Shown: positions 24,001-27,000, counted from the stretch's first letter. The stretch: DNA of 64,000 nucleotides from Candidatus Micrarchaeota archaeon (GCA_038046805.1 JBBSVO010000007.1:1-64000); one strand, 5' to 3'. Numbers: made by a program.

Positions 24001-27000
24001 ATATAAAATAACAATGAAAGCGCCATCATATAAGGAAGCAGAAAAAAATCTCACACTGATAATTGAAGAAATAGAAAAAATAGCCCAAAAAGGCAGCTGC
24101 GAATTTTCACATGAAAAAGAGAGTAGTTAAAAATAGCGAAACTGAGGAATAACCTGATGAAAAAAATCTTCATCTGTAATGTGTGTGCCAGGTATACTAT
24201 TAAGAACGAACACTGTGGAAAAAATACAAAAACAGCACACCCACCACATTTCAATCCAAATGACACATACGGGAAATATCGAAGAAAAATGAAAGGAATA
24301 GAATAAAGATTGAACCAATGAAATTTTCTTTTGAAAATTTCAAATATTTCGAAAACAGGGGTTTTCTCAATGAAAGAAACGATCATAGTTGAAAAAAAGA
24401 AAATAAAACTGAAAAAAGGAGTTCTTGTAACTGGACTCCCGGGCATAGGGCTTATAGGAAGAACTGTCGGAAGATATATGGCAGAGGAATTGAAAGGAGA
24501 AAAAATCGCGGAACTGTACTCACCATATTTTCCACACCAGGTCTTCATGACAAAAAAGGGTGGAATACGCCTCATAAAAAACACAATATATCTTGTAAAA
24601 TGCAAAAAACGCGACATGGTTATATTAACCGGAGATGTACAGGCACTTTCCTCAAAGGGACAATATGAAGTCGCAGGAAAGATATTAGATTATGCAGAAA
24701 AGATAGGTGCAGAACTTGTTCTTACAATAGGTGGCTATAGTACTGGAAAACTTAATGAAAAAAGAAGACTTTACGGAGTTGCCACGCACGAAGAAGTAAT
24801 GAAATGGTTAAAAGAGAATGGCGTTGAATTCGGAATTGCGCGCGGATCAATAGTTGGTGCAGCAGGACTTGTCCCGGCACTTGCAAAATTACGTAATATT
24901 AAAGGCGCGTGCCTGATGGGAGAAACCCACGGCGGTTATGTTGATGTAAAAGCAGCGAATGAAATGGTTGGACTTCTTGCACGCCTTCTTGGATTTGTGA
25001 TAGATACGAAAAAGCTTGAAACAAAAGCAAAGGAAGGAGAAAAGATACTAAAGAAAATAGAGGAAGAAGTGCAAAAGAATATGATAACCCCATACGAACC
25101 TACAGGTGGAAGCGTAAGTTATATACGTTAGCTTTGGGCATTGCGTTCGCATCTGCTCGCGCAGAACACTTGCAGGATTATTCTAATTTTTTCTTTAATT
25201 CATCGAGTGAATTAGCCACAGTAATTCCTTTTTCAGTGAGTTTGACCAGACGTTTCTTACCTTTTGCTTCGATTGCAACCAAGCCCTTTCTCGCAAGCTC
25301 GCTTATGAATTTCGTAACGTAAACATATGTTGTTTCGGTTGAACGTGCGATTTTTGAAAGATGCCAGGATGTTGAAGAATCCTTAAGTATTAGAAGAACC
25401 CGTGCGGGTTTGTCACGTATGAATGAAAGCGGCATAAGCCTGTAATACTGCCGTTTGTTTAAAAACCTTTCATAATTACGTCGGGTGTCCGACGTTACCG
25501 ACGATAGCTTTATAAATACTCTCTAAAATATAGAAGCGGCGCAGGCGTTTACGAGAGCAAAGCGCTTGGAAAATGTTCATGCGCACGAAGGTTGCGTGCA
25601 TAACGCAACCCTATTTTCTGAGGTGAAAGAATGGGATCAAAAGTCGGAAGTGAAAAGATTGGAAGAGAAAATGGGTATCTCTACTTTGTAGGTAAGGATG
25701 GATACGTCTGGGCAGCACCCATGAAGCACAATAAAAGCGGAAGAAAGAAAAAAATTGGATCTGAAAAGATTTCCAAAGAAGCTGGCTTCATGTACTATGT
25801 AGGCAAAGACGGATATGTCTACAAAGCAAAATTGAAGAACTTTAGGAAGTAAAATCCTTTCTTCTTTTTTTATTTTTTCTTTTTGTATTTTGGGTTGAAC
25901 TATTGGATAGAGCAGGATATTTTCGCCGACTTCACGATAGTTTTATAAGCCTGACGCAACACAACTCAATTTTACCGTTTATTCAAAGTGATTACTTATG
26001 AGCAAGGCAAGAATTACGCTAAGTGGGGATAACCCCGGGGATCTCGACGGAGTAGTAAAGCAGATAAAGGAACTGGCCACCGTATTGAGCATGAAAATGC
26101 ATGGTCCGATAAGGTTACCAAGGAAAAAACTCGAAATAAGCTGCAGACGAACTCCATGTGGAGATGGTTCGGATACCTATGAGCATTGGGAGAAAAGAAT
26201 ATTCAAAAGACTTGTTGATGTGGAAGGCGACGAGAAGATGATAAAACAACTTCTTAGGGTAAAGGTGCCAAGCACAGTATTAGTCAAAATATCTCTTACA
26301 TAATTATATAAGGCTGATTATATGGGTTCAAGACCTCGTAAATGGAAGAAGAAGAATCGCATGCGCTGGAAGTGGGTAAAGAAAAAAAGGAAAAGGCTCA
26401 AGCGAAAGGCAAAGCGAAGAGTAGGAGAACTCTAGTTTTATTACGGTGAACATATGGGGTTTCGCTGGCCGTTAGTTGATGAAATAATTATATCTGTAGT
26501 TTCATTAACTCCGCCATTATTTGACCCGAACCGGACTTATATTGAAAAAGAAAGGTCTGGAGAGGTTAAACAAATTCCCGTTGAAAGAGAGCTGTTTGAA
26601 GCCAGATTTGAAAAAGCGATAGTTAATCCAACTGTAGTCTCCCAAACTTCGGGAATCCCTCTGAGCAATTTCCCGGTTCCTACCCAGCCTTTACAACCAA
26701 ATGCGCAACCTATCGAAAAAACAGATGATAGACAGAAACGTCCTCCAGAAGAACACCGGAGCCCGACACGAAACGGGGTTCCGCACATACCAGTCTTTTT
26801 GCGCATGCCGCGTGAACTGAACGCCCGTGGAAACGAAAACCGAAATAATAGAAGACCGCGGGATGCACTAGCGCGCGCGTAGAAGTACCTTTAAAAAGCC
26901 TTCCGAACCAAATCATTTCTTACCCGTAATTACTATTCTTGGAATAGGAGGGAACTTTTATGGTAGACAAAAAGAAAATTCAGGAAGCCTTAGCAAAGGT

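Follow-up and report, generated by a model that had tools for sequence, protein, structure and literature searches.

The gene g964, in a 64,000-nt stretch of a Candidatus Micrarchaeota contig (the window; positions count from its first letter), probably encodes a major nucleoid protein of a new family, for which DNA binding is predicted. The elements of the locus are listed below.

25631..25852, + strand: g964, a 73-aa basic two-repeat beta protein and candidate nucleoid protein (ORF, profile searches and structure model)
25640..25729, + strand: repeat 1 of g964 (aa 4–33), with a short strand, a loop, and a beta hairpin with an aromatic pair and a GKDG turn
25751..25840, + strand: repeat 2 of g964 (aa 41–70)
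25620..25626, + strand: strong Shine-Dalgarno sequence of g964 (7-nt match)
25590..25610, + strand: 8-bp hairpin in the inferred 5' leader of g964
25855..25892, + strand: U-rich tract, probable archaeal terminator of g964 (from the sequence; the same in orthologues)
25503..25516, + strand: BRE-like hexamer with TATA box, immediately following the proximal CGWCG site (read from the sequence)
25479–25483, 25490–25494 and 25499–25503, no strand: three CGWCG sites, 11 and 9 bp apart, a putative operator
25178..25435, − strand: Sso10a-like winged-helix gene, divergent, sharing its intergenic region with g964 (PF14947 at the cut-off)

An initial annotation of this DNA had pointed to a Lys-rich two-repeat protein of 73 aa, and the ORF bears out that description. 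The protein has 15 Lys and 3 Arg (18 basic residues), 6 acidic and 11 aromatic residues and a pI of 10.0, and its two repeats, each of 30 aa, are identical at 18 of 30 positions. A single copy was found in this genome, which is 86% complete; the divergent winged-helix gene (25178–25435) lies on one side and the uS10 gene (25998) on the other. By its own TATA box, Shine-Dalgarno sequence and U-rich tract, g964 reads as a monocistron. The elements that we take to be BRE and TATA, following the archaeal promoter consensus, keep the same layout relative to CGWCG in the orthologues. Shine-Dalgarno matches of at least 7 nt precede only 27 of the 1,118 genes of at least 100 aa in this genome. Among the criteria for nucleoid proteins given in PMC7613761 are a length below 290 aa and a single-gene operon, and g964 shows both; some of its bacterial relatives closely follow another gene. 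An aquifer metatranscriptome yielded 14 scattered contigs with a depth of ~2–4 over 16 kb, which can neither show transcription nor rank genes.

No Pfam, NCBIfam or PHROG family reached its cut-off for g964, and the four weak Pfam matches at E ≤ 1 did not include Cren7/Sul7d. The relative BCS90855.1 (ARM1_0312; 60% identical to g964 over 68 aa) was placed by eggNOG in arCOG12677 (seed Metfor_2881), an unnamed entry that carries neither description nor function and is probably the archaeal branch of the g964 family; the earlier statement that the protein has no family is therefore true of named families only. ESM Atlas returned only clusters labelled ‘hypothetical protein’, a search of the GenBank phage set was without match, and the main texts of the open papers searched neither describe the g964 family nor mention arCOG12677. 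We conclude that the family is new and uncharacterised. An AlphaFold2 model of g964 (49-row alignment) was all-beta and confident (pLDDT 93.3; 91 in the initial annotation), with four strands forming two hairpins (aa 16–20 and 26–30 in repeat 1; aa 53–57 and 63–67 in repeat 2). Foldseek with this model found nothing at E ≤ 0.001 in the PDB or among viral models. The top match of a wide structural search had Z = 2.8, which agrees with the previous claim of no clear solved fold, the absence of a match being no proof of a new one. An SH3-like fold was not seen among the 37 chains at Z ≥ 2 or the Foldseek rows, an absence that is not excluding. The histone family PF00808 did not match g964, and the model is all-beta, not helical as a histone fold would be. 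The homodimer prediction scored 0.18 (mark, 0.42). In the long homologues P0145, P0154, P0184, P0200, P0233 and P0238 the two-repeat unit is fused or multiplied five to seven times, with zinc ribbons, an M48 peptidase and membrane anchors as fusion partners.

The gene is widely conserved. By profile search an orthologue was present in 165 of the 176 genomes of the order (23 of 25 had been reported) and in 91/98 of its own family. Identity of the best copies in a 101-genome draw was mostly 62–89%, much as the 65–86% stated before, and fell below that range, to 46–55%, in the most divergent genera. The value for uL14 in the same draw was 44–69%; by this sole comparator g964 appears more conserved than uL14, and the likening to core ribosomal proteins holds. 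Matches at E ≤ 0.001 numbered 249 cluster representatives, the same number as reported. Of 201 genomes sampled from the phylum, 171 had g964; G320 and G431, both unpublished, count in the phylum tallies. Close relatives (up to ~81% identical) are encoded by Methanoregula and other Methanomicrobiales and more distant ones by Thermoplasmata, the latter group also named in the initial annotation. A single-repeat profile retrieved 4,609 proteins of 15–76 aa. Named genome records carrying the family (80 kept of 565) include Elusimicrobia, Omnitrophota, Nitrospirae, Woesearchaeota and others, and sampling of the bacterial phylum to which an Elusimicrobia record belongs found a relative in 117 of 121 genomes. 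The gene was also carried by 12 viral contigs (L073–L084), four of them with short, single-repeat forms of ~40–55 aa. Neighbouring genes vary by lineage, and the strong Shine-Dalgarno sequence and the terminator are constant; since the neighbours vary, the gene itself is the common element. Profile matches in G244 (locus L308) and G190 run through one TAG each; the L308 protein was parsed as 73 aa, and its TAG may merely be the stop codon.

The initial annotation had presented g964 in the setting of a family without histones, as its candidate packing protein. Histone loss is real. PF00808 was found in 6/98 genomes of the own family (four strong matches, one fragment of a coiled-coil-type histone and one apparent non-histone, judged by eye), in 40/42 of the sister family and in 0/19 of another family, in keeping with the 4/98 and 40/42 recorded before. 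A profile of 30 histones of the order, run against 27,697 six-frame ORFs of this genome, gave a best E of 1.0, and coiled-coil-type and doublet histones used as queries found no match here. Synteny gave the same answer at the following positions.

58016..58192, no strand: empty slot; in histone-bearing relatives the histone gene lies here, head to head with the helicase gene
58193..59791, + strand: Hef-like superfamily 2 helicase gene, the synteny marker (helicase motifs read by eye)

An orthologue of this helicase lies within 1.5 kb in 19 of 30 histone loci. The slot in this genome contains no histone ORF, and the contig is continuous there. Divergent doublet histones of family f10 (L071:418-882 and L072:475-906) occupy the same slot beside the helicase gene. 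The only coiled-coil-type histone found among the 176 order genomes lies at L069:534-923 in G131, at the end of a 2.8-kb contig, and may have been transferred or misbinned. As the initial annotation had itself recognised, g964 also occurs where histones are kept (40/42, 54/56 and 33/36 genomes in histone-bearing families); it is not a specific histone substitute. Within the phylum sample all 51 histone-negative genomes have g964, and the 30 genomes without it all come from families that, by family tallies, all carry histone, a complementarity that is suggestive only, because related genomes are not independent. Because the gene is older and more widespread than the histone loss, tying its packing role to a histone-free family draws the picture too narrowly: the promoter motif, abundance and H1-like tails described below favour a nucleic-acid-packing candidate, but not one specific to that family. 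Other chromatin proteins are present. Alba was found in 91 of 99 family genomes, including 35/35 near-complete ones. The protein of the divergent winged-helix gene matched Sso10a_fam at E = 1.3e-4, below the cut-off; its gene occurs in 155/176 order genomes, adjoins g964 in 8 of 30 orthologue loci, is arranged head to head with g964 across much of the family, and is a second chromatin candidate.

The region upstream of g964 carries a recurrent motif. CGACG/CGTCG repeats were first seen by eye in the upstream regions of a discovery set, which comprised 108 non-redundant 150-nt regions (nine loci were dropped on parsing, and near-duplicates and regions that were too short were removed), and enrichment was scored against dinucleotide shuffles. 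CGWCG was the top 5-mer in the order (52 versus 9.7 ± 2.9 in shuffles; 23/26 loci) and in other archaea (17 versus 3.3; 9/17 loci), and in bacteria ranked next after an overlapping word (70 versus 22.9; 24/60 loci); the upstream regions of five viral loci had no site. With its flanks the motif is YCGWCGR, a pseudo-palindrome. Held-out loci gave 35 versus 7.3 in the own family (19/20 loci), 12 versus 2.4 in other families (8/17 loci; 3/20 not parsed), 19 versus 4.0 in other Micrarchaeota orders (15/20 loci) and 21 versus 2.6 in the Methanoregula type (11/11 non-redundant loci; 68 usable of 80), where two sites about one turn apart nearly always stand just before BRE/TATA. Held-out Elusimicrobiota gave 13 versus 3.4 in only 5 of 25 loci, three of which hold 11 of the 13 sites; many motif-free loci of this group sit close behind another gene. 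Related genomes within all these counts are not independent.

The enrichment is specific to g964. The control word CGSCG was not enriched, other genes in the same loci had 0.26–0.34 CGWCG per 150 nt, and only one site was found upstream of 30 histone genes and three upstream of 20 unlinked winged-helix genes. The winged-helix gene was not found in 5/5 bacterial genomes, four of them with motif-rich promoters. As a generic promoter element CGWCG fared poorly, occurring in the 14 nt before TATA in 1 of 251 TATA-bearing upstream regions. Genome-wide it is not enriched here (O/E 0.80, similar to 0.78 for CGSCG), and among 655 CGWCG sites in the 1.2-Mb genome the triple at 25479–25503, which abuts BRE/TATA, is the only one with spacings of ≤30 bp. 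Locus L374, which encodes the abundant ARM1_0312 sequence (see below), has no CGWCG in the 200 nt upstream. Spacings of 9–12 bp made up 49 of 162 between neighbouring sites, in a set de-duplicated only in part. Most sites are upstream of TATA, and both orientations occur; on these two grounds we regard them as DNA elements. Such arrays point to autoregulation through DNA binding; that the g964 protein itself would bind CGWCG is the simplest reading. Three CGWCG sites also precede the gene of a 116-aa membrane protein (G000:C2:118175-118630, L286; no Pfam family, a paralogue 4 kb away), which this query found in 74/98 genomes of the family and 1/42 of the histone-bearing sister family. A CGWCG regulon with this gene as a member was considered and rejected, its orthologues being not clearly enriched (9 versus 3.4 ± 1.7; shuffle maximum, 9).

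Proteomic data show that a relative of g964 is highly abundant. In selected rows of Supplementary table 1 of PMC11329633, which give no rank, BCS90855.1 was represented over four co-culture samples by 9 peptides and 348 spectra, with iBAQ values of 1.4, 1.8, 1.7 and 7.9 × 10^10, the fourth sample being an outlier and iBAQ being able to overstate small Lys-rich proteins. Ratios computed from these rows were, per sample, 2.1, 2.2, 2.2 and 10 to EF-1alpha, 2.7, 1.8, 2.4 and 11 to Alba, and 6, 28, 6 and 109 to histone A. The protein exceeded eL14 13–64-fold and uL14 17–155-fold, these being the only two ribosomal comparators, and reached 0.4–0.5 of the S-layer protein, once 2.2. Raw intensity per kDa in the same rows pointed in the same direction. 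The high-abundance outlier expected of a nucleoid protein is thus seen, within these rows, for the 60%-identical relative only. This abundance argues against a stoichiometric ribosomal protein and against an ordinary regulator. The ribosome-bound alternative raised in the initial annotation is weakened accordingly, and g964 has no conserved position among ribosomal genes: in none of 30 orthologue loci did uS10, uL1 or the upstream operon lie within 1.5 kb. Some family members have Lys/Ala- or Lys/Arg-rich C-terminal tails of up to ~70 aa (27/196 genome loci, archaeal and bacterial); long tails were found in only 3 of 315 database proteins, which came from length-limited searches. These tails resemble those of histone H1 and HupB.

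Taken together, we consider it fairly likely that g964 is an abundant nucleoid protein whose hairpin pair has a preference for YCGWCGR, holds down its own promoter by means of phased sites and elsewhere coats DNA more loosely. The large unnamed family to which it belongs would consist of small, basic proteins that bind DNA and are very abundant; its gene stands alone and carries strong signals for translation. Within one chain, the two near-identical beta-hairpin repeats would make up a pseudo-symmetric unit with a preference for YCGWCGR, each repeat taking one CG half. By occupying several sites about its own promoter, spaced by a helical turn, the protein would set its own level, and repression is the likelier sign of this regulation, because the sites abut or flank BRE/TATA and −35/−10. 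At high copy number it would coat the chromosome more loosely and might compact it, helped in some lineages by the histone-H1-like tail. Predating the histone loss, it may, with Alba and the Sso10a-like protein, have made histone dispensable in this order rather than have replaced it.

An abundant RNA or single-stranded DNA binder (a cold-shock-like chaperone, or a non-stoichiometric coat of ribosomes or mRNA), with the motif recognised by some other factor or bound only as a sideline, would account for several properties of g964: small size, basic charge, 11 aromatic residues, a stand-alone gene, a strong Shine-Dalgarno sequence and a leader hairpin are also typical of RNA chaperones, and g964 adjoins translation genes (uS10, eS6-like) here and in some relatives. 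We nevertheless judge it unlikely. Those neighbours are conserved only within parts of the family, motif sites that occur in either orientation, for the most part upstream of TATA, do not suit it, none of the solved chains, archaeal ribosomes included, matched g964, and in the proteomic rows considered the relative is far above 1:1 with ribosomes. The operator-like array at g964's own promoter, the pairing of a pseudo-dyad protein with a pseudo-palindromic site, and the second three-site region in this genome, before the membrane-protein gene, could be expected of a sequence-specific, autoregulated transcription factor without architectural role. Ordinary regulators, however, are far less abundant than a protein at the level of the S-layer, near which the relative stood in those rows; the H1-like tails and the lack of clear enrichment at the membrane-gene orthologues also speak against such a factor, and we think it quite improbable. 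A further alternative is a role away from nucleic acids (polyanion, membrane or S-layer, stress, storage), with another regulator, common to these lineages, binding CGWCG. The membrane, zinc-ribbon and peptidase domains to which the domain is joined in some long homologues would fit it, as would the weak resemblance of the repeats to propeller and choline-binding hairpins (best PDB sequence match, designed propellers, E = 0.0011), but all these weak matches are below the cut-off. It requires that three archaeal lineages and bacteria share a regulator that recognises one and the same site, and the sole local candidate, the winged-helix gene, fails; we give this role little credence.

The likeness to CC1 of the Thermoproteales suggested in the initial annotation found no support, and that g964 is a divergent member of the CC1 family seems to us extremely unlikely. 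CC1 is presumably DUF5679-like; the g964 family alignment compared with four DUF5679 proteins gave a probability of 0.2%, and DUF5679 was found in 6/176 order genomes and not in this one. A route to CC1 through the single-repeat profile was tried and abandoned: the best 120 of its 4,609 matches were two-repeat proteins, with no named Thermoproteales CC1 among them. Size, pI and beta content of g964 do agree with descriptions of CC1 in PMC4200833, and entries of 74–78 aa appear among the rows listed in PMC7613761. That survey (Hocher et al.) used T. tenax CC1 (G4RKF6) as its jackhmmer query, and its 230 CC1 rows, as far as available to us, list none for genomes that encode close g964 homologues. 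Methanoregula PtaU1.Bin051 is credited in Table S1 with Alba and two histones only, yet encodes the family member OPY39067.1; the CC1 block has no Methanoregula row, and the 32 Micrarchaeota rows seen in this source hold one CC1, of 47 aa. By its accession range, PIT84630.1 (81% identical to g964) would come from a listed genome without CC1 in the same table.

As a nucleoid protein, which remains the reading we prefer, g964 shares features with several known systems. HU/IHF, Fis and H-NS are likewise abundant and monocistronic with promoter-proximal sites, and the tails recall HupB, Hc1 and histone H1; g964 differs from HU/IHF, Fis and H-NS in its unrelated sequence, its all-beta single-chain pseudo-dimer and its CG-centred site. 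Literature on other systems was consulted (PMC4200833, PMC2275093, PMC6136690, PMC3189178, PMC7325993, PMC11390915, 10.1101/217323, 10.1101/2021.07.08.451601 and 10.64898/2026.07.02.735847). T. tenax CC1, like g964, is small, basic, rich in beta-sheet and highly expressed according to PMC4200833, but it has 56 aa and binds single- and double-stranded DNA alike, and the CC1 search, in the rows available, did not retrieve g964. Cren7/Sul7d, as covered in PMC7613761, are ~7–9 kDa, beta-rich and very abundant, with a pI near 10 and stand-alone genes, and co-occur with Alba in histone-less archaea, as g964 does. In contrast to them, g964 has an internal two-fold repeat and an apparent preferred site, had no sequence or fold match to them in the searches run, and belongs to a family of bacteria and DPANN rather than of Crenarchaeota. 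The candidate nucleoid protein WP_019177984.1/AGI86273.1 of Methanomassiliicoccales has 70–74 aa and is Lys-rich, abundant and, by prediction, of a new fold (PMC7613761), all as in g964; compared by description only, its reported relatives in Sphingomonadales, Rhodobacterales, Alteromonadales and Flavobacteriales are not among g964's named matches.

A far wider claim can be made only tentatively, and we hold it to be doubtful as a whole: that in most Micrarchaeota the protein is the chief chromatin component, outnumbering histone even in genomes that retain it, and that Elusimicrobiota and other bacteria have it as a core nucleoid protein; that a new all-beta fold reads CG-centred pseudo-palindromes and regulates itself through helically phased sites; that gene and operator passed jointly from one domain to another; and that its presence allowed repeated histone loss within the order. 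Surveys of what organises chromosomes in DPANN and histone-less archaea count only named families. If the claim were true, a major chromatin family with a new fold would be missing from them, core to one class of archaea and to at least one phylum of bacteria, and in a cultured DPANN it would surpass histone and Alba in abundance. The CGWCG array offers a precise and cheap test, with one small protein and one oligonucleotide, and cultured carriers exist; its CG-centred site also raises the question of whether cytosine methylation modulates binding.

Further observations were made in the window. After uS10, a 37-aa Arg/Lys-rich ORF (26322–26435, + strand) has no Pfam match; we take it to resemble eL41-type ribosomal peptides. 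Genes at 30295–32846 (+ strand) encode ribose-1,5-bisphosphate isomerase-like and AMP phosphorylase-like proteins, presumably the DPANN nucleotide-salvage route. At 55979–57475 (+ strand), a 498-aa protein has apparently three tandem response-regulator receiver domains, recognised by eye, which is unusual for a DPANN genome.
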